Part shown: positions 1-13,019 of the stretch, piece by piece
Position numbering within the stretch: position 1 is the first letter of the stretch
How the letters are laid out: each line of letters begins with the position of its first letter
Assembly: GCA_036012755.1 (NCBI GenBank)
Contig: DASCPX010000117.1
Span: forward strand, 1-13,019
DNA from: Myxococcota bacterium
GTDB lineage: Bacteria; Myxococcota_A; UBA796; CAJQPC01
Reading direction: 5' to 3'
Length of the DNA stretch: 13,019 bases
Translations under genes and position numbers: made by a program
Notes under the pieces: generated by a model
The model's database searches: none
Seen by the model: the letters and a program-made list of their open reading frames with translations, nothing else
Told to the model about the DNA's origin: nothing

Positions 1-7
1 TCGACTT

Positions 8-277
8 GTGCATGGGAACGAGTTGGATCTCGACCCCGCGCGTTCGTACCGCCTTCTCCTCCCCTTTGCCGAGGCGCTGCCGGACGAGATGATCGCCCGC
101 TTCAAGCAGACGCCGGGGGCCTGGGACTTCTACCAAGCCCAACCCAAGGGCTACCGCAAGCACACCCGGCAGTGGGTGACCAGCGCCAAGCGGGAGGCGA
201 CCCGGGCGCGGCGCCTGGCGACCTTGATCGACGACTCGGCCAATGGGCTACGGATCAAGCAGCTGCGCAAGGGCTAA
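8..277 (+). CDS. YdeI/OmpD-associated (bacteriocin-protection) domain protein, possibly 5'-partial
   Basis: AWDFYQAQPKGYRKHTRQWVTSAKREATRARRLATLI matches the OmdA/YdeI C-terminal pattern (F..qp.sYRk....W...AKre.TR.rRl). The frame is open to the window edge, so the true start may lie upstream. Confidence 0.8.
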   Translation: MHGNELDLDPARSYRLLLPFAEALPDEMIARFKQTPGAWDFYQAQPKGYRKHTRQWVTSAKREATRARRLATLIDDSANGLRIKQLRKG

Positions 278-317
278 ACGGGCCCGCATGCGAACCCGGG
301 CCGAGTAGACTCCAAAC

Positions 318-323
318 AGGAGG
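318..323 (+). promoter_or_regulatory. Shine-Dalgarno site for the CDS at 329
   Basis: AGGAGG, 5 nt before ATG 329. Confidence 0.75.
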
Positions 324-328
324 CGCCC

Positions 329-1123
329 ATGTGGTGGTTTGCGGCCCTGGCGGCGTGCGGCATCTGGCAGGAGGGCCCGCCCTCTGTGGACACGGGGCCC
401 GAGCCGGACACCTCGATCTCGGTTGGGGACGCGGACCAGGACGGCTGGCTGTGGGAGGACGACTGCGACGATGGCGACCCGGCGGTGTACCCAGGCGCGC
501 CCGAGGACTGCGGGGATGGGGTGGACCAGGACTGTGACGGACGCATTGACTGCGAGGACGCAGACTGTGTCTCGGCCTGCACCGAAGACTGCAGCGTGAC
601 CGGCGACGAGGACGGCAACGGGTACGCGGACTGCATGGACGACGCCTGCTGGGGCGTGGGCGAGTGCGGCTGGCCCCAGGTCCAGGTCACGGGCGGCCAC
701 GTGGCGGTGCAGCGCGCGCAGTATCTGTACGTCGGCGGGCCCAGCCTGCGACACCACTACGCCAACTTCTTCCCGTCGGGCAGCGTGCAGCAGGGAGACC
801 AGCGTTGCGATTGGTCGGGGCGCTTCTTCGCCAGCGTGAGCTGGTCCAGCACCCAGAAGGTGAGCAGCATGGCGCGGGTCAGCTCGTCGGTCTCCAGCGC
901 CTGCCCCATCGCCCTGGAGGGGGGCTGGCTGCCGGCGCCCAGCAGCCTGACGTGGGACGCAGGGCAGGTGGATGTCCAAGGCCAAGCCTGGTACCGACCG
1001 GGTGCCCTGTACGGGACCAGCAGCACCACGTGGACCTGGGCCGAGCCCTATGGCAACAGCGGCTGGGGGGAGCTCCGGTCCTACAGCAGGCCGCTGCTGT
1101 CGGGGCAGGCCATCGGTCTCTAG
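329..1123 (+). CDS. Putative lipoprotein with a MopE-like putative metal-binding motif and Cys/Asp-rich repeats
   Basis: N-terminus MWWFAALAA-C. DADQDGW..DCDDGDPAVYPGAPEDCGDGVDQDCDGRID is the typical Cu-binding_MopE (PF11617)-type motif, followed by a second C..(G)D.DG.G..DC.D..C repeat. Good SD. Confidence 0.8.
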   Translation: MWWFAALAACGIWQEGPPSVDTGPEPDTSISVGDADQDGWLWEDDCDDGDPAVYPGAPEDCGDGVDQDCDGRIDCEDADCVSACTEDCSVTGDEDGNGYADCMDDACWGVGECGWPQVQVTGGHVAVQRAQYLYVGGPSLRHHYANFFPSGSVQQGDQRCDWSGRFFASVSWSSTQKVSSMARVSSSVSSACPIALEGGWLPAPSSLTWDAGQVDVQGQAWYRPGALYGTSSTTWTWAEPYGNSGWGELRSYSRPLLSGQAIGL

Positions 1124-1707
1124 CCGCTCACGGCGCCCGGCCCCTCAAAGAACACCGCCATCATGGCCGCCATGCGCGCGTCCTCGCCGGCCCGGTGGGC
1201 GTCCCCCAGCCAGGGAATGTCTCCGCCCGAGCGGTTGGCGTAGGCCACGGCCTTCTTGAGCGCCGGACCCCGCTTGCCGCCCATCACGGCCTTGGCGGTC
1301 TGCTGGATGTCCTGGCCCCGGGCCAGGCCGGTGCGGTCGAAGAAGTCCCAGGGGGCCCGGTCCAGGAACCAAAAGTCAAAGGACTGGTTGTAGGCCCGCA
1401 CCTCGGACACCCCAAAGCGCTGCTGCACCTTGTCGATCCACGCGGCCAGCCGGGGGGCGGCTTGGTCGGCGTCCAGGCCCTCTCGGCACACGCGGTCCAC
1501 GCTGATCTTGTGCACCTGCATGGCCCGCTGGGCTTGCCAGCTGGTCAGGTGGGACCGGGGCTGTCGCACAAAGAAGGAGATGGGCGAGACCACGCGCGCG
1601 TCTTCGGTGACCACCACGGCGCCGACCTCGATGATGCGGGCGCAGAAGCCCCCCCCGTTGTTGGGGAAGCCGGTGGTCTCTGTGTCCAACACCACGCAAG
1701 GGGTCAT
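1120..1707 (-). CDS. DEDDh 3'-5' exonuclease (DnaQ/RNase T-like), stand-alone
   Basis: ExoI VVLDTETTG, IIEVGAV, ExoII AYNQSFDFWFL, ExoIII AHRAGEDA. Its stop overlaps the convergent gene's stop in CTAG (1120-1123). Confidence 0.9.
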   Translation of the reverse strand: MTPCVVLDTETTGFPNNGGGFCARIIEVGAVVVTEDARVVSPISFFVRQPRSHLTSWQAQRAMQVHKISVDRVCREGLDADQAAPRLAAWIDKVQQRFGVSEVRAYNQSFDFWFLDRAPWDFFDRTGLARGQDIQQTAKAVMGGKRGPALKKAVAYANRSGGDIPWLGDAHRAGEDARMAAMMAVFFEGPGAVSG

Positions 1708-1761
1708 GGGCGGCTTCTATCACGCAGGGCGGCGTGCCGAGAATCCCCGGGCCTGACCACG

Positions 1762-2232
1762 TCAGCTGGGCAGGGCGAAGCTGCACGACCCCGAGACCTG
1801 GGTGTCGGGCTTGTCTCCCCGGTAGTGGTTGGGGTCCCGCGCCAGCGCCGTGAATCGCAGCAGCACCTGGCCGCCGCGCACCTCGAAGTGGGCGTCGATG
1901 TCCCACAGGCCCTCGTGCTCGAACACATACAGCCGCTGCCGCGCGTCCCGCTCCGCCAGGTAGGTCCACGGCACAATGACCTGGAAGTCGTCCAGCTCGG
2001 CCGGCTCCAGCGAGGGGACAGGCAGCCACAGGGTCAGGCTTGGGCTGGCCCATCCGCACTGGTCGCCCTCGGGGGCGGTGTCCACCGTGGCGGGTCCGCA
2101 CCAAATGTCCACCGACAGCAGCGTGGGGGCGCCGCGGGCCACGTAGATCTCCACGCGCTCCACGGGGTGTTCCTGGGTGCCGCAGAAGCGCTGCAGGCGG
2201 AGTTGGTGCTTGGGGGAGTCGTTGGTGGCCAT
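1762..2232 (-). CDS. Hypothetical protein (156 aa, MATNDSPKHQL...)
   Basis: Globular-looking ORF with host-like codon usage. ATG at 2232 has GGAG upstream and lies 2 nt after the stop of the upstream fragment. Confidence 0.65.
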   Translation of the reverse strand: MATNDSPKHQLRLQRFCGTQEHPVERVEIYVARGAPTLLSVDIWCGPATVDTAPEGDQCGWASPSLTLWLPVPSLEPAELDDFQVIVPWTYLAERDARQRLYVFEHEGLWDIDAHFEVRGGQVLLRFTALARDPNHYRGDKPDTQVSGSCSFALPS

Positions 2233-2234
2233 GC

Positions 2235-2430
2235 TCACTCCACTTGGACCACCACCCCCAAGCTCTCCACCCCGTGCTTGCCCGCAGCGCTGATGGCCCA
2301 CGAGCCCGGCTCCATGGTCAGGGTGGTTTGGCTTGAGGGGAGGATGCGGTCAATGGTCCAGGCGCCTTGGTCTTGGGCGTACACCACCCACCAGCGGGCG
2401 TCTGCGTGGGCGAGCTGCTCCCCGCTCGAG
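2235..2430 (-). pseudogene. 3' fragment of a secreted protein, resembling the beta-rich C-terminal tail of GHL10/DUF187-type glycosyl hydrolase-like proteins
   Basis: ARWWVVYAQDQGAWTIDRILP...WAISAAGKHGVESLGVVVQVE-stop is an Fn3-like C-terminal pattern. No credible 5' part: upstream sequence reads as a + strand gene. Family call is from memory. Confidence 0.45.
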
Positions 2431-2625
2431 GTCTTCATCTCCCACGTGAAGGGCTCGGTCTTCAAGGTGATGGAGGAGACCGCCCTCATCGAGCTGCTGG
2501 GCGAGGGCCACATGTTCTACGAGGCCAACGACGCCGTCGTCGCCGCCATGAAGCACAGGGCGGCGGTCGAGGACGGGCTGGCGACCGACGAAGAGGACTT
2601 CGGGCCGAGCGACGCGGTCGACTGA
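2425..2625 (+). pseudogene. 3' fragment of a SulP-family anion permease (end of the STAS domain)
   Basis: LEVFISHVKGSVFKVMEETALIELLGEGHMFYEANDAVVAA resembles the SulP STAS end (l.la.vKgpV.d.l...gl...lG....f.....AV). Host-like codon usage on + begins only at about 2425; stop TGA at 2623-2625. Confidence 0.6.
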
Positions 2626-2633
2626 CGGCCTTG

Positions 2634-2660
2634 CCGTTGCCGCCCTTGGCGCGGCGATGG
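2634..2660 (+). terminator. GC-rich stem-loop (possible terminator or element-end hairpin)
   Basis: CCGTTGCCGC (2634-2643) pairs with GCGGCGATGG (2651-2660) with two G:U pairs and a 7-nt loop. No U-tract. It ends 6 nt before the repeat at 2667. Confidence 0.3.
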
Positions 2661-2666
2661 GCCTGA

Positions 2667-2742
2667 CTACTCGATGTATCCGGAGAGGTGAGGAATCACT
2701 GTCGGTTGCAGTCAGTGGAATCAGTCGGTGGGATCACAGTGT
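2667..2742 (+). repeat. Direct repeat copy 1 (putative terIS-like end of an IS91/ISCR element)
   Basis: Ungapped manual alignment to 12268-12343 gives 62/76 identical. The first 17 nt, CTACTCGATGTATCCGG, are identical. Confidence 0.9.
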
Positions 2743-2777
2743 CCGGCCAGGTGACAAGGGCGTACTCAGTCCTCTTG

Positions 2778-2800
2778 TTGCAAATGATAATCATTTGCAA
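2778..2800. promoter_or_regulatory. Fur box (perfect 11-1-11 palindrome) overlapping a putative sigma70-type promoter
   Basis: TTGCAAATGAT-A-ATCATTTGCAA. 2780-2798 matches GATAATGATAATCATTATC at 15/19. TTGCAA (2778-2783), 17 nt, TATGAC (2801-2806) fits -35/-10 spacing. AT-rich island in GC-rich DNA. Confidence 0.9.
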
Positions 2801-2812
2801 TATGACCAGGGT

Positions 2813-4012
2813 GTGCTCTCCCTTCTACTGAACTCGGCCATCGCAGGTCCCTTCGCTCTCGAGGCGGATGGCTACGGCCAGGTGGACTTCGGGTGGCACG
2901 ATTACGGTGCAGACCAGACGGGCCAGGGCGGCTCCCCGCCGGACAGCAGGCTGGTCTTCGACCAGACCCGTTTCGTGCTGGAGCTGGAGGGCGAGGCGGA
3001 AGGAGGCTGGGCCTTCGAGGCTGAACTGGAGGTCGAGCACGGAGGGACCGGCGCCGCGCTCGAGCTGGAATTCGAAGAGTTCGGCGAGTACGAAAACGAG
3101 GTCGAAGCCGGTGGCGAGGTGGTGCTCGAGCAGCTCTTCCTGGCGAAGAGCGTCGGCCCCCACGTGACGGTGAAGGCGGGACGCCTGTACGTCGCGTTTG
3201 GGCAGCTCTACACCGCCCATCGGCCGACGGATCTGGTCGCTCTACGCCGTCCAGAGGCCGAGATCACGGTGGTCCCCGCCACCTGGGACGAGATGGGCCT
3301 CTCGGTCGAACTCCGCCGCCCCTCTTTCGAGCTCACCGGGCAGGTGGTCAACAGCCTGGACTCCACCGGCTTCAGCTCCCAGAGCTGGGTGGCCAGCGGC
3401 CACCAGCGTCGCTTCGAGGAGGTGCGGGCCACCTCCCTCGCGGGCGTGTTCCGTGTTGACTTCGTCGCCGTTTCTGGTCTCGTGGCCGGGACCTCCGCCT
3501 GGTTCGGTGGCACGACCGGCAACCGCCCCAAGGCTGACATGGCCGGCGTCTTCGCCCCGCTGCTCCTGGTCGACGCCCACATCGCCCTGAACCGGGGGCC
3601 TCTGCGCGCCAACGGCGCCCTCATCTGGGGTTCGCTCTCCGAGGCGCCGCTCATCAGCGAGAAGAACCGCCGGCTTTCGAACAACCTGGACGTGCTGCGC
3701 AGCCCCGTCGCGAACCAGGGGCTCGCCGCCTGGGTCGAGGTGGGCGTCGACGTCCTCCCGGCAGGGGGCCACCGGCTGGAGCCGCACCTGCGCCTGCAGC
3801 GCTACGACACGATGTTCCGCACCGACGAGAGCATCTTCGACAATCCGCGCTTCGAGCGAACGGTTTCGACCGCTGGCCTCGCCTACTCCACCCGCGACAC
3901 CGTCGCCGTCAGCCTGGACGCACAGCGCCGCGTGCTGGGTTCGGACGAGTTCCGCCCGGAGCACTCCGTGCTGCTGTCGTTCGGCTTCATCTACCAAACA
4001 AGGACCTCCTGA
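2813..4012 (+). CDS. Outer-membrane beta-barrel porin of the type found upstream of imelysin/DHOR genes (putative iron-uptake porin)
   Basis: GTG start after the Fur box gives signal peptide MLSLLLNSAIA. Alternating amphipathic strands, acidic ELEVEHGGTG..E.E.EEFGEYE.EVE.GGEVVLEQ motif, P.TW.E.G motif, near-terminal LSFGFIY strand. Confidence 0.75.
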   Translation: MLSLLLNSAIAGPFALEADGYGQVDFGWHDYGADQTGQGGSPPDSRLVFDQTRFVLELEGEAEGGWAFEAELEVEHGGTGAALELEFEEFGEYENEVEAGGEVVLEQLFLAKSVGPHVTVKAGRLYVAFGQLYTAHRPTDLVALRRPEAEITVVPATWDEMGLSVELRRPSFELTGQVVNSLDSTGFSSQSWVASGHQRRFEEVRATSLAGVFRVDFVAVSGLVAGTSAWFGGTTGNRPKADMAGVFAPLLLVDAHIALNRGPLRANGALIWGSLSEAPLISEKNRRLSNNLDVLRSPVANQGLAAWVEVGVDVLPAGGHRLEPHLRLQRYDTMFRTDESIFDNPRFERTVSTAGLAYSTRDTVAVSLDAQRRVLGSDEFRPEHSVLLSFGFIYQTRTS

Positions 4013-5049
4013 TGACTCTCATGTTGCTCGCCTGCACCAACCCCACGGACAGCCAGATCGCCTTCGATGACTTCGAGGCCTCCGAGGCCATCGCCCAGGA
4101 CTTCGCCTGGGAGGTGGTCGTCGCTGACTACGAGCTGCTCGCGGACCGCCTTGGCTTGCTGGAAGAGGCCGTACTCACCCTGCAGGCCGACCCCGCCCAG
4201 GCCAACCTGGAGGCCTCCCAGCAGGCCTGGATCAGCGCCCGCGAGCCCTGGGAGCTGAGCGAAGGTTTCCTCTTCGGTCCCGTGGACGCTGGCGGCTATG
4301 ACCCCGCCCTGGACTCCTGGCCGGTCAACCGCACCGACCTGGACGCCGTGCTGGCCAGCGACGACGTGCTCACCCAGGAGTACGTGAGCAATCTGGACCC
4401 GACCCTGAAGGGCTTCCACACCGCCGAGTACCTGCTCTTCGGCGTTGACAGCGGCCGCACCGCGGACGACCTGAGCGACCGCGAGCTCGAGTACCTTGTC
4501 GCCGTCACGGCCGAGATGGCCTCCATCGGTGACCTGCTCGCAAGAGAGTGGACAAACAACGGCTACGCCGAGCTGGTCGCCACCGCCGGGGCCCTGGACA
4601 ACACGGTCTACACCTCGCGCCAGTCCCTTGGCGAGGAGATGGTACGCGGCATGATCGGCATCCTGGACGAGGTCGCCAACGGCAAGATCGCCGACCCCTA
4701 CGACGAGGCCGACACCACGCTGGTGGAGAGCCAGTTCAGCTTCAACTCGCTGGCCGACTTCTCGGACAACATCCGCAGCGTGCAGAACGTCTACACCGGC
4801 GACCTGCCGCAGGGCGGGACCGAGGGTGACGGCCTGGACCTGTACGTGGCCGAGGTCGACCCCGAGCTCGACGCCCGGGTGCAGCAGGAGCTGATGGCCA
4901 GTCTGGCCGCCCTCGAGGCCATCGAGGGCCCCTTCCGTGACGCCATCCTTGACCCCGACTCTGCCGACGACATCGAGGCGGCACAGGAAGCCATCCGGAC
5001 CACCCAGACCACCATGGAGCAGGACCTCCTGCGCCTATTCACCAACTGA
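4012..5049 (+). CDS. Imelysin-family (peptidase M75-like, IrpA/IcmP-like) iron-regulated lipoprotein
   Basis: Lipobox MTLMLLA-C; AW..AR.PWE.SE.FLFGP; LDSWP; GxHxxE metal motif GFHTAEYLLF (GFHTAE at 4411-4428); ESQFSFNSL.DF..NI. TGATG coupling to the porin gene. Confidence 0.93.
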   Translation: MTLMLLACTNPTDSQIAFDDFEASEAIAQDFAWEVVVADYELLADRLGLLEEAVLTLQADPAQANLEASQQAWISAREPWELSEGFLFGPVDAGGYDPALDSWPVNRTDLDAVLASDDVLTQEYVSNLDPTLKGFHTAEYLLFGVDSGRTADDLSDRELEYLVAVTAEMASIGDLLAREWTNNGYAELVATAGALDNTVYTSRQSLGEEMVRGMIGILDEVANGKIADPYDEADTTLVESQFSFNSLADFSDNIRSVQNVYTGDLPQGGTEGDGLDLYVAEVDPELDARVQQELMASLAALEAIEGPFRDAILDPDSADDIEAAQEAIRTTQTTMEQDLLRLFTN

Positions 5050-5057
5050 GGTCGACC

Positions 5058-6358
<1,301 letters not shown>

Positions 6359-6362
<4 letters not shown>

Positions 6363-9157
6363 CGCTGCTGATGCTGGTGGCCTGCGGGCCGATGGACGCC
6401 CAGGAGAGCTTCGAGCTCGAGGTCGTCCCGGTCTTCGAGGCGAGCTGCGCGTCGACCACCTGCCACGGCGTCGCCGCAGACGCCGAAGCCAGCGGACAGG
6501 TCATCGCCTGGGACACCTTCGTCTTCGAGGTGGACGGGGGGCGCATCGTGGACTCCGAGCAGGCCCGGGAGGCAGCGCGCCGCGCCATCAACACCGTCGA
6601 GGACCCGGCGTTTTCCTCGCTGCTCCGCAAGCCGCTGTCCGTCGAGCAGGGAGGCCTCCCGCACTACGGCTACGCCAACTTCACCGGGCCCGAGGACCCC
6701 GTGTACCAGGCGGTCGCCCGGTGGATCGAGCGGGAGGACCATGGCGGCGAGGATCCCGAGCCGCTGGACGAGCTCGAGCAGCAGTTCGCCGACACCGTGC
6801 AGCCCGCCCTGGTCGAGGGCACCTGCTTGAGCAGCGGCTGCCACGGCCTGGGGGCGGGAGGCGTCCCCTACGCCCTGGACGTGGGCTACGGCGGCGCGTT
6901 CTCGATCGAGGCCACCCGGCACAACTACGAGGAGTCCCTGGAGCAGCTGTCACTGCACGGCTTCCCGGACCAGTCGCGGCTGCTGCGCAAGTCCCAGGCG
7001 ATGGACCGCGGCGTCGCCCACAAGGGCACCAACTTCGACTTCTTCACCGACGCTGGCGAGCACGCGATCCGGGAGTGGGCCTGCGCCGAGCGCCTGGCCC
7101 GGACCGGCCAGGGCTGTGCCGTTGGGCTGCCGATGAGCGGCCTGGTCTTCGTCGGAGGCCCCGTGGAGCCGGAGCACGCCTTCGAGCTCGAAGGCTACGT
7201 CCCCGGCAGCGACCTGTACCTGGCCACCGTGGGCGAGCAGGGGGTCACGGCCCTCGAGAACCTGACAGAGGAGCTGCACGAGCAGCCCGCCGACGTCCGC
7301 GACCCCGCCGTGTCTCCCGATGGCTCCGAGCTGCTGTTCACCATGCGCCGGCAGGACGACGAGGGCCACAGCCTGTACTGGATGGACCTGGCCACCCGCG
7401 AGGTCACGCGCCTCACCGATGCGCCGGGCAGCGACCGGGACCCCACCTGGGGCGCAGGGCGAACCATCTGGTTCGTGTCCACCCGGCGCGGCCTGCTGGA
7501 CGACTCGGGCCAGCGCGCCGACGCGGACCTCTTCAGCCTGGACCTGGACACCGGCGCGCTCCGCCGCTGGACCTCAACCCCCCACACCGAGCGAAAGCCC
7601 GGCTGGTACGACATCGGCCCCAATGGCGGCGAGATCAGCGTCAGCACGCTGCGCGAGGTGGTGCCCGGAGAGGCCCGCGCCCACCCCTTCCGCTTCCCGC
7701 CGAACCTCTCCACCGAGTACCACCAACACTTCGGCGTCTCGCCAGGGCCAGACCTCTTCTACGACATGCGCGAGACCGCGGATGGCCGCTACGTGGCCAT
7801 CGTGGGGGACCTGGCCAACGCCTGGCCCGCCGGCCAACTGGGGGTCGTGGACCGCAACCTGGGGCCGGAGATCAACGACGGGGCCGAGCCCGCGTTCCAG
7901 CTCTACCTTCCGCCGCTGACCCTGATGGACGAGGACTCCTCGCCCTGGGGCGGCACCGCCTGGCGTGACCCGGCGCCGCTGGCCGACGGCCGGCTGCTCG
8001 CGGCGGCCAGCGCCGAGCCGGTGGACCTGAGCGACCCCGAGGCCACCCCGCGCTTCCGGATCGAACTGGTGGGCTTCACCGAGGCCCTCGACGGGAGCGG
8101 TCCGGTCATGACCGAGCGCGAGGTGCTGGTGGAGCTCGAGGGCCTGTCTGCGTTCGACCCGGAGCCCATCTGGCACCACGCCCCCCACCGAAGCGAAGGG
8201 CAGCACCAGCCAGAAGGTGACACCGGTCTGTTCCTGCACCACGGCCTGCCCCTGGTGGACGCGCTGCTGGGCGCCCTGGCCCCGAGCGGCGCACGCCTTC
8301 CCCGCCACGACATCGTGGGCGTCCGGCTGGTCGAGGCGCTGCCCACGACCTGGCTGGACCGCACCCCGCTCGCTCCGGAGGAGACCCGGCATGGCCAGCT
8401 GGAGGCCACCAGCGCCGGGCTGGTCCGGCACCCGCCGGCGCGCATTCTGGCCGAGATCCCGCTCGCCGCCGACGGCAGCTTCACGGCACGGGTCCCCGCG
8501 GACGTGCCCTTCCGCCTGCAGGCCCTCGACCAGGACGGCATGGCCATCGGCACAATGCACAACCGCTGGTACGAGGTCGCGGCGGGGCAGGTCGTCATCC
8601 AGGGCCTGACGGTGCAGCACGGCTCGGAGCGCTACGGCTCGCTCTGCGCGTCCTGCCACGGGAACCTGGACGGGGACGACGGCGCCCCTGCCCTGGCTGA
8701 GCCCGACATCATGACGGGCGCCTCGCTCACCCTGAGCCGCTACGAGAACCAGGACCCGCGCCGCCCCATCGAGCCCGAACCGGTCGGCGACGACCTGCTC
8801 GAGGTCGACTTCGTGCGGGACGTCCAGCCGGTGCTGGTCGAGCGCTGCTCAAGCTGCCACGGTCCCCCTTCCCCCGCCGGTGGCCTCAGCCTGACCGCCA
8901 CGTCGACGCTGTGGTTCTCCGACGCCTACGAGAGCCTCCTGGCCCCCGGAGAGCGCTCCGGCGGCGGCTTCGACTACGTGGACGGGGACGCGGGCATGGC
9001 CTCGAACAGCCTGCTGGTCGAGGTTCTGAGCGGGGAAGAGCTGTCAGCGCCCGGCAGCTTCGACGGACCGGACCACGTCGAGCACCTCAGCGGAGAGGAG
9101 CTCTTGCTGGTCATCCGCTGGGTCGACCTGGGCGCAACCTGGGAGGGCACCCGATGA
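6359..9157 (+). CDS. Large (932 aa) multiheme lipoprotein: two N-terminal cytochrome c domains, TolB/PD40-like beta-propeller, HzsA-like middle domain, C-terminal cytochrome c domain
   Basis: GTG overlapping the DHOR stop (GTGA) gives MTLLMLVA-C. Heme motifs CASTTCH (6446-6466), CLSSGCH (6824-6844), CASCH (8645-8659), CSSCH (8846-8860). Propeller repeats DPAVSPDGSELLF, DRDPTW..IWFVSTR, DPAPLADGRLL. RILAEIPLAADGSF.ARVPADVPFRLQALDQDGMAI is typical of the hydrazine synthase alpha middle domain. Confidence 0.8.
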
Positions 9158-9576
9158 CCCTGCTCTTGCTGGCCTGTGCGATAGAGCCCGGCACGATGGA
9201 CCTGCCTCTGGGCGACCTCGAGCGCTTCGAGCAGGACGTCCAGCCCGTGCTGGTCCCGACCTGCAGCAGCCCCTCCTGCCACGGCGACGCGTCCCGCCCA
9301 TTCGAGCTCTACGGCGTGCACCAGCACCGCGCCGACCCGGACGAGGTGTATCTGGACACCCCCCTCCGCGACGACGAGGTCTGGCACAACTTCGTTCGGC
9401 TCTCGGCCCTCAACACCGGCCTGGTCGAGGCCGAACTCAGCCTGGCGCTGGCCAAGCCCCTGGACCCCGACGCCGGAGGCGTGCCCCACGAAGGCGGCGC
9501 CTGGTTCTCCACCACCGACGACTGGGACTACCTGCTGCTGCACGCCTGGATCGAAGACTCCCTGGAGGAACCATGA
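9154..9576 (+). CDS. Small monoheme (CX4CH) cytochrome c-like lipoprotein, 140 aa
   Basis: ATGA overlap; MTLLLLA-C; FEQDVQPVLVPTCSSPSCHG (motif 9262-9282); KPL....GG.PH.G...F....D..Y....WI shared with the N-terminal domain of the upstream protein. Confidence 0.8.
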   Translation: MTLLLLACAIEPGTMDLPLGDLERFEQDVQPVLVPTCSSPSCHGDASRPFELYGVHQHRADPDEVYLDTPLRDDEVWHNFVRLSALNTGLVEAELSLALAKPLDPDAGGVPHEGGAWFSTTDDWDYLLLHAWIEDSLEEP

Positions 9577-9989
9577 TCGCCCTGCTCAGTCTGGGCCTGC
9601 TCGCCGCGCCCATCAAGGCCCCGCCCGAGACCGCCGCGCTCTACGCCCTCACCCCCGACCACGAGGGCCCGCTGCTGGTGAACTTCTGGGCCAGCTGGTG
9701 CTCGCCCTGCGCCGCCGAGCTGCCCCTGCTCGCCCACCTGGACGACGAGGTGGATGACCTGCGAGTGGTGCTGGTGAACATCGACCACCAGCGGCGTCGG
9801 GCCGAGGCCATGGTCCGCCGGCTGGAGCTGGACCTGCCTGTGATCTACGACACCGACGGCGAGCTCACCCGAGCATTCGACCCGGCGGCCCTGCCGTCGA
9901 GCTGGCTGCTCGTCGAGGGAGAGGTGCGACAGGTCTACGAGGGAGTCATCGAGATCGAGCAGGTCCGCCGCGACGTGGAGGCGCTGTGA
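9573..9989 (+). CDS. TlpA/ResA-like thioredoxin-fold disulfide reductase
   Basis: LLVNFWASWCSPCAAELP, V.V.LVNID, cis-Pro ALPSSWL; N-terminal hydrophobic signal; ATGA overlap. Confidence 0.92.
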   Translation: MIALLSLGLLAAPIKAPPETAALYALTPDHEGPLLVNFWASWCSPCAAELPLLAHLDDEVDDLRVVLVNIDHQRRRAEAMVRRLELDLPVIYDTDGELTRAFDPAALPSSWLLVEGEVRQVYEGVIEIEQVRRDVEAL

Positions 9990-10171
9990 TCCTGTTCCTC
10001 TGGCTGGCCTGCGTGCCGCTGAGGCCCTACGAGCGTGCGCAGCTGCAGGCGCGGCTGATGGCGGAGCCGCTGGAGGACCTCGAGGGTGGCGCCGACGCCC
10101 ACGTGCTGGCCGCGCGCGAGTTCGCCACCGGCGCGGCGGTGACCAAGGGGTCGGCCTGCGGATGCAATTGA
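9986..10171 (+). CDS. DUF4266-like small lipoprotein
   Basis: MILFLWLA-C-VPLRPYER..L...M, H....RE, C-terminal CGCN; GTGA overlap; lies between the TlpA and DUF3570-like genes. Confidence 0.85.
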   Translation: MILFLWLACVPLRPYERAQLQARLMAEPLEDLEGGADAHVLAAREFATGAAVTKGSACGCN

Positions 10172-11214
10172 TCCTTCTGGGGCTTGCCACGGCGGGCGAG
10201 GTCGCCACCCGGGTCGACGTCTACGACGACGGCTGGGTCGAGGTGGTGATGCCCGCCGTGTCCGTGTCCGTGGACCAGGACCATGGGACGGTCGGCGCTA
10301 CCTGGACCGCCGACATCCTGAGCGGCGCCACCACCCAGCTCGACGCGGACCTGGTGAGTTCCGCGACGACCTACAGCGAGACGCGGCACCAGTTGGACGT
10401 GCAGGGCCTGACGCGGCGGCACGACTGGCAGCTCGGCGCTGGCCTCAGCGAGAGCCGGGAGCCCGATCACCGGTCGCACAGCGGAGGGGTCGAGCTGAGC
10501 CGCGAGCTCTTCGAGAGCATGAGCACCGTCAGCGTGGGCTACGGACTGAGCGTGCAGCGCGGCGGGCGCGTCGACCAGGAGCAGGCGTGGCAGCGCTCGG
10601 TGGAGCACGCCATGGACCTGACCTGGACCCAGATCCTGGGCCGGCGCACCGTGATGAGCGTGCTGGTGTACGGCGCGATGGCGCGCTGCGGCGAGCAGCT
10701 GGGCTGCTACGCGAACGCCTACCGGTTCGTGCCCCTGGAGAAGGGCCTGGTGGTGCCCGAGCGCAACCCCCACCAGCTCGGTCGAGCGGCGGCCGCCCTG
10801 CGCTTCGCCCAGGCCCTGGGCAACCGGGCGGCGCTGCTCGGCGGCTACCGCTTCTACCAGGACACCTGGGAGGTGCGGGCGCACACCGCGGACCTCACCG
10901 CCAGGCTGCTGGTGATGGACGAGCGCTTGATGCTCAGCGGGACCGGGCGCTACAGCAACCAGAGCGGGGCCTCGTTCGGCGCCTCGCCGCAGGTGGCCGA
11001 CCTGGCCGTCCCCGGGTGGCGCTCCGCCGACCGTGAGCTCTCCGGCTTCGTCAGCCAGCACGCGGGTCTGCGCGCCGAGTGGTCCTTCTTCGGGGTCGGA
11101 CCGTGGCTCCGTCTCGGCGTCTCGGCCAGGGGAGCCCGCATGTGGACGACCTACCTGGAAGGGAGTGAGCGGGCTGCCTGGATGGTCGGTGTGGGGCTCA
11201 CGGGTGAGCGTTAG
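10162..11214 (+). CDS. DUF3570-like outer-membrane beta-barrel, candidate ApbE flavinylation substrate
   Basis: Short signal MQLILLGLATA; DILSGAT/DLVSSAT; S.E.D..S; GcyaNaYR; ER.P..; YRFY.D.W.V.AHT; aDReLS.F; context TlpA-DUF4266-X-ApbE. Confidence 0.82.
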   Translation: MQLILLGLATAGEVATRVDVYDDGWVEVVMPAVSVSVDQDHGTVGATWTADILSGATTQLDADLVSSATTYSETRHQLDVQGLTRRHDWQLGAGLSESREPDHRSHSGGVELSRELFESMSTVSVGYGLSVQRGGRVDQEQAWQRSVEHAMDLTWTQILGRRTVMSVLVYGAMARCGEQLGCYANAYRFVPLEKGLVVPERNPHQLGRAAAALRFAQALGNRAALLGGYRFYQDTWEVRAHTADLTARLLVMDERLMLSGTGRYSNQSGASFGASPQVADLAVPGWRSADRELSGFVSQHAGLRAEWSFFGVGPWLRLGVSARGARMWTTYLEGSERAAWMVGVGLTGER

Positions 11215-12157
11215 CCTGTGGGTCGCCACCGCGTGGGCCTCGTGGGCGACGGTCTCGACCGAGGCCATGTCCACCCGCGTCGACCTGAGCCTGCCCGCCG
11301 AAGACGCCGAGAAGGCGGAGCTCGCCTGGGAGGTCTTCGCCACGGTCGAGGCCCAGGCCAACGAGTGGCGCGAGGACTCCCCCATCGGCCGTGTCAATGC
11401 CCGGGCTCCCCAGGCCGTAGTCGTGCCCGAGGACGTCTTCGCCCTGGTCCAGAGGGGGGTCGAACTGGGCGCCCTCACCGGCGGCGCCTTCGACATCTCC
11501 TGGGCGGCGCTCTGGGGCTTGTGGGACTTTTCCACCCCCGGGCCCGTTCCAGACGCCAGAGAGTGCGCCCGCCGCGCTGCCCAGGTGGACTACACCCGGA
11601 TCGAGCTGGACCCCGAGCAGCTCACGGTGCGGCTGCCCGAGGGCATGAAGATCGGCCTGGGCGGGCTGGCCAAAGGCCACGCCCTGGACCGGGCCGCCGC
11701 AGCCCTGCGCGCCGCCGGAGTGCGCGACTTCGCCCTTTCGGCCGGCGGGCAGGTGCTCGCCAGCGGCGAGAAGGACGGCCGCCCCTGGCGGGTCGGCGTG
11801 CGGGACCCTCGCGGCGCCCCAGACGACTACTTCGCGTTGCTCGACGCCAGCAACACCTCCGTGTCCACCAGCGGCGACTACGAGCGGTACTTCGAGCACG
11901 ACGGCGTGCGCTACCACCACATCCTGGACCCGCGCACCGGCCTCCCAGCCCGCGGGTTGCGCTCCGCGACGGTGGTGAGCGCGGACGCCACGCTGGCGGA
12001 CGCGCTGGCCACCGCCCTGATGGTCCTCGGCCGCGACGAGGGCCTCCGGCTGGTCGCTGAGCTGAAGGGGACGGAAGCGGTCGTGGTGGATGACCATGGG
12101 CGGGTCTTCTCCACTGACGGGCTCCAGCTCACCCTGGCCCACGCCCCCCTACCCTGA
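11204..12157 (+). CDS. apbE: FAD:protein FMN transferase (ApbE family)
   Basis: GTG 11204 overlapping the upstream stop gives MSVSLWVATAWA; AM.T; TGGAFDIS; LGGLAKGHALD; W.VGV.DP; STSGDYERYF; YHHILDPRTG; ADALATAL. Confidence 0.95.
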   Translation: MSVSLWVATAWASWATVSTEAMSTRVDLSLPAEDAEKAELAWEVFATVEAQANEWREDSPIGRVNARAPQAVVVPEDVFALVQRGVELGALTGGAFDISWAALWGLWDFSTPGPVPDARECARRAAQVDYTRIELDPEQLTVRLPEGMKIGLGGLAKGHALDRAAAALRAAGVRDFALSAGGQVLASGEKDGRPWRVGVRDPRGAPDDYFALLDASNTSVSTSGDYERYFEHDGVRYHHILDPRTGLPARGLRSATVVSADATLADALATALMVLGRDEGLRLVAELKGTEAVVVDDHGRVFSTDGLQLTLAHAPLP

Positions 12158-12205
12158 AGCTCCTGGCGATCCGGAGTCCTTCAATGGGCCGTACACGATG
12201 CGAGG

Positions 12206-12236
12206 CCTGACGAGGCGCTTCCCGGGGCACGTCAGG
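12206..12236 (+). terminator. Inverted repeat downstream of apbE
   Basis: CCTGACG (12206-12212) / CGTCAGG (12230-12236); no U-tract. Confidence 0.25.
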
Positions 12237-12267
12237 GACGGCCTGGGAAGGTCTGGGACGGGTCCCC

Positions 12268-12343
12268 CTACTCGATGTATCCGGTGAGTTGAGGAATCAC
12301 CATGGGTTGCGGCTCCTGGGATCAGTTGGTGGGATCACTTTGT
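12268..12343 (+). repeat. Direct repeat copy 2 (putative terIS end of the IS91/ISCR-like element)
   Basis: 62/76 identical to 2667-2742; immediately precedes the transposase fragment. Confidence 0.9.
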
Positions 12344-12354
12344 ACCAGAGCGCC

Positions 12355-12840
12355 GCGCGTCCGCCGTTGGCGAAGGGGCGGCTGGAGGAGAACCCGGATG
12401 GCACCCTGCGGCTTCATCTGAAGCGTCCGTGGTCGGACGGCACGGTCGCGTTCACCTTCAGCGCGGCGGAGTTCGTCGAGCGACTCGCTGCGCTGATCCC
12501 GCCTCCGCACAAGAACCAGGTGATTTATCATGGGGTGCTGGCGCCTCGGGCTGCCTGGCGGCAGCAGGTGGTGCCGCGTCCACTTCGCATCACGGATGCG
12601 CAGCGCAAGCGTCGGGTAGCCGATGTGCTGACGCGGACGCCGAGCCGCGCGGACAGGCCCAGGTGGACACCCTGGCGGCAGCTGCTGGAGCGGACGTTTG
12701 GCGCTGATGGGTTCGGGTGTCCGAACTGCTTTCAGCGGATGCGGCTTCGTGCGGTTGTGATGCCGCCCGCGACGCTTCGTGTGATCGAGGGCCTCCAGGC
12801 GGCGAGTCGCGCGCCTCCTGGGGAGCGGGGGGCTGGCTGA
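12355..12840 (+). pseudogene. IS91/ISCR-family (HUH Y2-type) transposase, C-terminal fragment
   Basis: ARPPLA..RL...DG.L.L.LKRPWSDGT..F.F...EF.ERLAALIPPP..N...YHGVLAP...WR..VVP; W..LL.R.F..D...CP.C...MR; terminal RAPP. The Zn-binding N-terminus, HUH motif and catalytic RY before ARP are missing. Confidence 0.9.
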
Positions 12841-12900
12841 CGCCGCAGGACCGCCTGTTGGTGGGCACACCTGCGTCCCGCTCTCAGGGGCGGGGGCGTT

Positions 12901-13019
12901 TTCGGGTCAGGTGAGGGCGAAAGCGCTCACGAAGGGGTGGACCCGGGTGAAAAAACCAGCGTCGCGCACCGAAGATCGCCAGGGGCATAGGTTGAAAAGT
13001 GGTCTAATGCTGCCTATCC
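12901..13019 (+). other. Putative oriIS region with nested hairpin
   Basis: CGGGTC (12903-12908)/GACCCG (12940-12945) encloses GTGAGGGC-GAAA-GCGCTCAC (12911-12930). ATAGG (12987-12991)/CCTAT (13013-13017). The window ends at CCTATCC. Confidence 0.55.

Follow-up and report, generated by a model that had tools for sequence, protein, structure and literature searches.

An iron-linked operon of a marine myxobacterium joins an imelysin-DHOR cassette to a hydrazine-synthase-like cytochrome cluster

The stretch of DNA analyzed here (hereafter the window) is one whole contig of 13,019 nucleotides (DASCPX010000117.1) from the 6.7-Mb genome of a marine myxobacterium (G000, 96% complete). It carries a nine-gene operon, in which a porin-imelysin-DHOR iron cassette is followed by a cluster built around a relative of the alpha subunit of hydrazine synthase (HZS). 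Comparison with related loci revealed that the cassette stands where other loci carry a fused beta-gamma-like HZS partner, and that the two never occur together at any of the 70 loci compared. We tentatively, at somewhat less than even confidence, read the operon as an iron-repressed, outward thiol-flavin-heme chain that would reduce Fe(III) outside the cytoplasm for uptake.

The nine open reading frames (ORFs) share one orientation and span 2813-12157. The junctions from gene 1 to gene 9 (-1, +8, -4, -4, -4, -4, -10 and -11 bp) are those recorded in an earlier note on this DNA, and the layout supports its proposal of a single operon. Protein families were assigned by a Pfam scan of 15 ORFs of the window. 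Gene 1 (2813-4012; all genes on the plus strand; start codon uncertain) encodes an OprO/P-like outer-membrane porin; the Porin_O_P match is weak (E 0.007), and porin models in the Atlas match with a template-modelling (TM) score of 0.88-0.92. Gene 2 (4012-5049) encodes an imelysin lipoprotein (E 6e-63) with the motif G134-x-H136-x-x-E139, and gene 3 (5058-6362) a DHOR di-heme lipoprotein (E 5e-93) with CxxCH at residues 80 and 317. Gene 4 (6359-9157) encodes an HzsA-like lipoprotein (HZS_alpha, E 6e-8, plus PD40) with two N-terminal CX4CH domains, a TolB-like propeller, the HZS middle domain and two CxxCH domains. The small CX4CH cytochrome lipoprotein of gene 5 (9154-9576), a paralogue of the gene 4 heme domains, has no Pfam match and falls into unnamed Myxococcota clusters. 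Matches above cut-off identified gene 6 (9573-9989; redoxin) as a TlpA/ResA-like thioredoxin with C43-x-x-C46, gene 7 (9986-10171) as a DUF4266 lipopeptide with CxC at the C-terminus, gene 8 (10162-11214) as DUF3570 and gene 9 (11204-12157; start uncertain) as an ApbE flavin transferase. The thioredoxin, the CxC peptide and the seven heme motifs of the operon (four CxxCH and three CX4CH) had all been noted before. The export signals previously ascribed to all products were judged by eye and are very short, with Cys preceded by 7-8 residues in five genes. In all lipoprotein genes of the window the signal is very short with an uncharged N-region; genome-wide, a crude pattern applied to G000 returned 336 short lipoprotein-signal ORF starts, 268 of them with Cys at position 7-9 (no control set). 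No sigma-70 promoter was found in the window, and neither of two terminator-like matches lies at the operon end.

The product of gene 4 is a distant relative of HZS alpha. Among 8000 candidates scored, 123 homologues were found at E <= 1e-10, the named ones mostly from Myxococcota. Residue conservation and an AlphaFold model were based on 114 sequences; the model reached a predicted local distance difference test (pLDDT) score of 94.9, and an earlier one from 6 sequences (pLDDT 52) was not used. The best match in the PDB is HZS alpha (Z 34.3, root-mean-square deviation 3.2 A, 587 residues aligned; Foldseek E 1e-32). The model has the overall fold of that subunit, with propeller, middle domain and C-terminal heme domain, and like HZS alpha (5C2V) and the non-anammox homologues of clades I-IV described in the available text of PMC12758564 it carries two c-heme domains at the C-terminus. 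Unlike HZS alpha, it has two additional CX4CH domains at the N-terminus, which resemble its own C-terminal heme domain and gene 5. Both of these CX4CH motifs and their downstream His are invariant (114/114 homologues), and the fourth heme motif switches between CX2CH (77), CX4CH (30), CX3CH (5) and other forms (2); taken together, this argues for heme binding by the CX4CH motifs. The HZS ligand Tyr591, four residues after the heme alpha-I His, is replaced in gene 4 by Asp771 (mapped by offset from the motif), and the homologues have Asp (78), Ser (20), Asn (4), Gly (4), Ala (3) or other residues (5) at this position. No His corresponding to His772, the ligand of heme alpha-II, was found in the gene 4 tail after the last helix; the equivalent is absent from 94 of the 114 homologues, present in 5 and unmatched in 15. 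H909, kept in 102/114, may stand in for it. Tyr591 and His772 are named as HZS alpha residues in PMC12758564, where other non-anammox homologues show the same losses; Myxococcota and imelysin are not mentioned in its main text. Because of the Asp at the Tyr591 position and the missing His, we consider gene 4 HZS-like but not a hydrazine synthase. HZS beta and gamma genes are absent from the window, and their sole match in G000 lies on another contig (C129) beside another alpha-like gene.

The neighborhoods of 70 loci of gene 4 relatives were compared. The small cytochrome is present in 44 and DUF3570 in 37 of the 70, and since both recur beside gene 4 relatives, gene 4 belongs to the DUF3570 cluster. 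It natively travels with the small cytochrome, DUF4266 and DUF3570; the operon is composed of two modules, not of the three (iron cassette, HzsA-like gene, flavinylation genes) that had been proposed. Thirty loci (type B) have a gene fusing a propeller to a di-heme domain. HZS gamma was the sole significant PDB match of the di-heme domain (E 1.6e-10), and the propeller matched HZS beta, ranked behind a generic YVTN protein; in carrying such a fused beta-gamma-like gene the related loci resemble HZS alpha and its non-anammox homologues (PMC12758564, available text). Nineteen distant loci (type C) have a longer propeller-diheme fusion. In eleven loci (type A) the fusion is absent and DHOR and/or porin-imelysin genes lie upstream: the complete porin-imelysin-DHOR cassette directly upstream in eight (L045, a copy of the window element, L046, L050, L055, L056, L059, L061 and L075), porin-imelysin only in L053, and DHOR only in L064 and L067. 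The exclusion is mutual, with the fusion in 0/11 type A loci and DHOR, imelysin or porin in 0/30 type B loci. In a FastTree phylogeny of 66 of the 70 loci (four short rows, L073, L077, L080 and L100, were dropped), the 11 type A rows grouped with three unassigned ones in a single clade of 14 rows (support 100), which branches from within the type B rows. The type A join spans several Myxococcota families. The simplest history to be read from these sequences would be that the iron cassette replaced the beta-gamma-like partner in a single swap and that Fur control was gained. The nearest counterparts of the window TlpA and ApbE are those of type B, and both look retained from the ancestor.

Two further clusters were observed. 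G000 carries a type C pair at C129:290000-298200, consisting of a propeller-diheme gene and an HzsA-like gene; the genes after it resemble Rnf subunits by eye. In a second species of the same genus (G002), a type B cluster (L021:2054-10544) separates genes that are direct neighbors in G000 (C246), and G000 has no cluster at that site.

A predicted Fur-type box, a perfect 11-1-11 palindrome, is located at 2778-2800. It is one of five sites in the G000 genome within two mismatches of the 15-bp Fur consensus, and the genome has a Fur gene. When sites with at most four mismatches were counted and 28 of the 30 type B loci were used (L070 and L080 were left out), a Fur-like box was found upstream of 10/11 type A loci compared to 1/28 type B loci, a contrast that counts as one evolutionary event and not 11, because the type A loci are kin. 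This in silico result supports the Fur control suggested in the earlier note, and judged by the predicted box the operon may be under Fur/iron repression.

The downstream genes correspond to the ApbE-DUF3570-DUF4266-thioredoxin clusters of PMC8238504: all four genes, including the DUF4266 CxC, are in the window, and DsbD is located elsewhere. The DUF3570 protein has one intact [S/T]GA[S/T] flavinylation motif (SGAT 54-57) and a degenerate second site (SSAT 66-69); a third match, at 268, is outside the N-terminal region. According to the available text of PMC8238504, ApbE flavinylates DUF3570, covalent flavin mononucleotide (FMN) was shown on a Chlorobium protein, and electron flow from DsbD via thioredoxin to DUF3570 was proposed. 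The window differs from these clusters in that heme proteins and the imelysin cassette are joined to them, behind a Fur-type box; the word imelysin is absent from the main text of that paper. G000 has two more DUF3570 clusters (C190:26700-30600 and C137:139700-146800); one of them adjoins a multiheme gene, and the other includes ApbE, TlpA, DUF4266 and a cytochrome. In a deep type B clade (L078-L090), all 13 DUF3570 proteins listed are without the N-terminal [S/T]GA[S/T] motif.

The upstream cassette, with its GxHxxE imelysin adjoining DHOR, resembles PA4370-73 and SomB1-IrpAB-Ftr1 as far as these are covered in the available text of PMC3143127 and PMC9080828: a porin, a GxHxxE imelysin, DHOR and iron-type regulation (predicted in the window) are shared. 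PMC3143127 connects imelysins both with iron uptake under Fur regulation and with di-heme peroxidases, and PMC9080828 recounts SomB1-IrpAB-Ftr1 as a proposed reductive porin-IrpAB-permease system. Unlike these systems, the window has no second (GxxxxE, PA4372) imelysin and no FTR1, and six additional redox genes follow the cassette. In line with the earlier note, the Pfam scan of the 15 window ORFs gave no match to a second imelysin, DUF1513, a permease or a TonB receptor. Elsewhere in G000, a second, stand-alone porin-imelysin-DHOR set (C49/C175; 52-57% identical) has its own Fur-like box and is followed by a propeller gene that also occurs in type B clusters. A third imelysin-family gene lies in a cluster (C127:59200-64760) with a Fur-like box at 64741.

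On the reductive reading favored here, DsbD, encoded elsewhere in the genome, would reduce TlpA, which would in turn reduce the CxC of DUF4266. DUF4266 would hand electrons to FMN on DUF3570, from where they would pass to the small cytochrome of gene 5, to the four hemes of gene 4 and on to DHOR, which would take the position of the ancestral beta-gamma di-heme partner. DHOR would then reduce Fe(III) bound by imelysin near the porin, and Fe(II) would enter via FeoB. The genes for FeoB, DsbD and heme-c assembly are present in G000.

Several observations weigh against this reading. We infer both the single relay and its direction, the latter from the thiol and flavin parts only, and the box contrast is, as stated, a single event. 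Two members of the type A clade (L058 and L063) have neither cassette nor box, and L053 has porin-imelysin yet no DHOR. The join recurs in other Myxococcota (11/70 loci in all), so that the refuting case named in the earlier note, a combination that never recurs, did not arise, but the full nine-gene form does not recur: TlpA and ApbE lie within the operon in 1/11 type A loci, that is, only in copies of the window element. DUF4266-DUF3570 follow in 6/11 (two of the other five are cut by contig ends). The thiol/flavin arm is therefore not obligatory in cis; an ApbE gene is found somewhere in the genome in 11/11. A partner in trans is possible in three of five type A genomes tested, which hold a beta-gamma-like gene elsewhere; no gamma-like domain was detected anywhere in the other two. 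Five further type A genomes hold a type B locus (genomes paired by record title), and G000 itself has the type C pair with its beta-gamma-like gene at C129. The profile match between DHOR and the gamma-like domain covers 35 columns (probability 85%), so that the swap would be one between distant relatives. DHOR is labelled a putative peroxidase in Pfam and placed among di-heme peroxidases in PMC3143127, and oxidative chemistry fits too. FTR1 was not found in G000 at 96% completeness.

In a peroxidatic alternative, the same chain would feed DHOR as a CcP/MauG-type peroxidase, either to remove H2O2 during Fe(II) uptake or to use H2O2 to oxidize Fe(II) or cleave organic ligands that bind iron, the latter uses resembling a proposal made for EfeB. 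DHOR, in which W369 and H405 are invariant, and the ancestral beta-gamma fusion both match CCP_MauG weakly, DHOR also cytochrome c551 peroxidase, and imelysins have been linked to peroxidases (PMC3143127); the available text of PMC6405878 shows varied peroxide chemistry in that superfamily, without mention of DHOR. However, the peroxidase matches of DHOR are far below cut-off, and the presence of FeoB in G000, where the FTR1/EfeU ferric permease was not found, fits Fe(II) as product, and we regard this alternative as rather unlikely. About equally improbable, in our view, is that the operon co-regulates two separate machines, genes 1-3 being an ordinary imelysin-type iron uptake system and genes 4-9 an iron-starvation paralogue of the beta-gamma-type cluster with its partner in trans; TlpA and DUF4266 would then possibly serve heme attachment at CX4CH. 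The stand-alone cassette of G000 with its own box, the coexistence of both types in many genomes and the loss of the cassette in L058 and L063 speak for such independence, as does the order-wide distribution (154 genomes), where DHOR-like genes occur in 74 and HzsA-like genes in 17 and the two are adjacent only in G000 and G002. Yet the join persisted through several Myxococcota families, L064 and L067 keep DHOR alone before the HzsA-like gene, which singles DHOR out as the linked partner, and in two of five genomes the beta-gamma-like gene was not detected. Highly improbable is a role in nitrogen chemistry, with gene 4 and DHOR forming an HZS-like enzyme that would act on NO, hydroxylamine or an N-N/N-O ligand and be induced by low iron. 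Gene 4 does match the HZS alpha fold over its full length, and the ancestral cluster holds all three HZS-like parts. Against this stand the Asp at the Tyr591 position and the lack of His at the His772 place, losses shared by other non-anammox homologues in PMC12758564, and an operon that has no beta subunit.

The operon lies in a segment recently transferred between species. Positions 2426-12354 showed 11 differences from G002 in 9,929 bases (99.89% identity), compared to ~73% identity over 22.9 kb of other DNA shared by the two genomes. Identity starts at 2426 inside the STAS domain of a SulP sulfate transporter, which is intact in G002 on the left side; the window keeps only its last 65 codons as a 3' remnant (2426-2625, plus strand). 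A run from another study (X3) has the same two breakpoints and 9/11 G002-type differences, and two possible source runs span the left junction of the window. Mis-binning is an unlikely cause of the identity, as both flank contexts assemble separately. A self-contained copy with its own TlpA and ApbE would suit horizontal transfer. Outside the segment, window positions 1-2425, a flank not present in the G002 contig, contain an OmdA/YdeI fragment, a MopE-repeat lipoprotein, a DEDD exonuclease and two ORFs of no known function.

The operon stands between two direct repeats at a distance of 9,601 bp from each other. In the left one (2667-2753, plus strand) the core reads as the reverse complement of the end of a ...GY[IV]E-stop gene and precedes three GG(G/A)ATCA(C/G) heptamers; with the right one (12268-12354, plus strand) the segment that G002 shares comes to its right-hand end. 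Among 154 genomes of the order, the repeat was found in 2. The GY[IV]E-stop gene end is common in sulfatase-like genes of the family (one confirmed by Pfam). In the window, L027, L032, L159 and L162 the sequence behind the core is not that of a gene, and in G021 (L133) a gene end carries a short duplicated scar in which two cores lie 87 bp from each other. Our reading of the repeats is that they would be attachment-site (att)-like junctions of an integrative element, with the ends of sulfatase genes apparently an undescribed integration hotspot. As in islands that integrate at protein-gene ends, the repeats carry a gene-end core; unlike in such islands, sulfatase-like genes are apparently targeted at their LGY[IVM]E-stop end, and an integrase was found neither beside the repeats nor beside the G000 cores checked, nor in four serine-recombinase loci, many contigs ending near the sites. 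In the contigs of 8 runs, no joint was seen that would close an excised circle from repeat to repeat. Folding as a structured single strand was rejected (z-scores -0.95 to 0.87 for five folds); a coding tail was rejected as well, the in-frame ORFs having just 14 and 17 codons. Downstream of their LGY[IVM]E-stop ends, sulfatase-like genes of the family often share a motif, and the core also occurs without a gene body (G000 C70:312770, C70:336140, C134:678, C242:181, C248:18168 and C14; G021 L133, L159 and L162; L027; L032). In G002, the second repeat has an AbiE toxin-antitoxin pair (L017:11910-13435) on its right side, which would fit an island.

To the right of the segment, 12354-13019 (plus strand) holds a 5'-truncated ISCR/IS91-family transposase remnant, with the conserved right end of the element at the contig end. 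The HUH-Y transposase is not intact, its sequence as far as the Tyr of RYIARPP being lost at the junction. In other G000 contigs, four different flanks adjoin the same right end; this conserved ori-side end is presumably oriIS. The bottom strand of the left junction reads CTCG. In the available text of PMC13181058, CTCG is the IS91 terIS cleavage tetranucleotide and IS91/ISCR elements undergo one-ended transposition. The cargo upstream of a truncated ISCR with intact right end and the CTCG at the left suggest that such one-ended transposition may have moved the segment; unlike in that model the transposase is broken, and CTCG is common in the window DNA, which weakens the left-junction argument. 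A metagenome contig (L033/L034) combines the left flank of the window with a G002-type right flank and has no ISCR fusion. Either this contig is a chimera or the ISCR fusion postdates the transfer, and ISCR-driven transfer is thus not established.

The earlier note did not include the loss of the beta-gamma-like partner, the repeats on either side of the operon or the recent transfer. Its impression that the combined architecture was undescribed has held, in that no description of the join was found in the published literature; the gene-cluster spreadsheet of PMC8238504 could list such loci, and the supplements of PMC12758564 lay outside this survey. Neither the five-gene type A core nor the beta-gamma (type B) form was found in print. 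Each module was already known; mutual exclusion, clade nesting, box contrast, the self-contained form and transfer were tested here.

Three orphan systems meet in this operon, namely the non-anammox HZS homologues, the flavinylated DUF3570 proteins and the imelysin-DHOR operons, none of which has a known reaction. The Fur-linked partner swap gives all three a single condition to test, iron starvation, and a single candidate substrate, and with its own ApbE and TlpA within 9.4 kb the operon is expressible as a unit. In the fullest version of our reading, which we regard as doubtful, myxobacteria would have rebuilt an HZS-like enzyme as a trans-envelope ferric reductase, with the beta-gamma partner exchanged for DHOR and the whole placed under Fur, and a self-contained thiol-flavin version with seven hemes, bounded by the att sites of an undescribed element that targets sulfatase ends, would now be moving between marine species. 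The operon bears on the role of the HZS scaffold outside anammox, and on the exchange of marine iron-acquisition genes between species.

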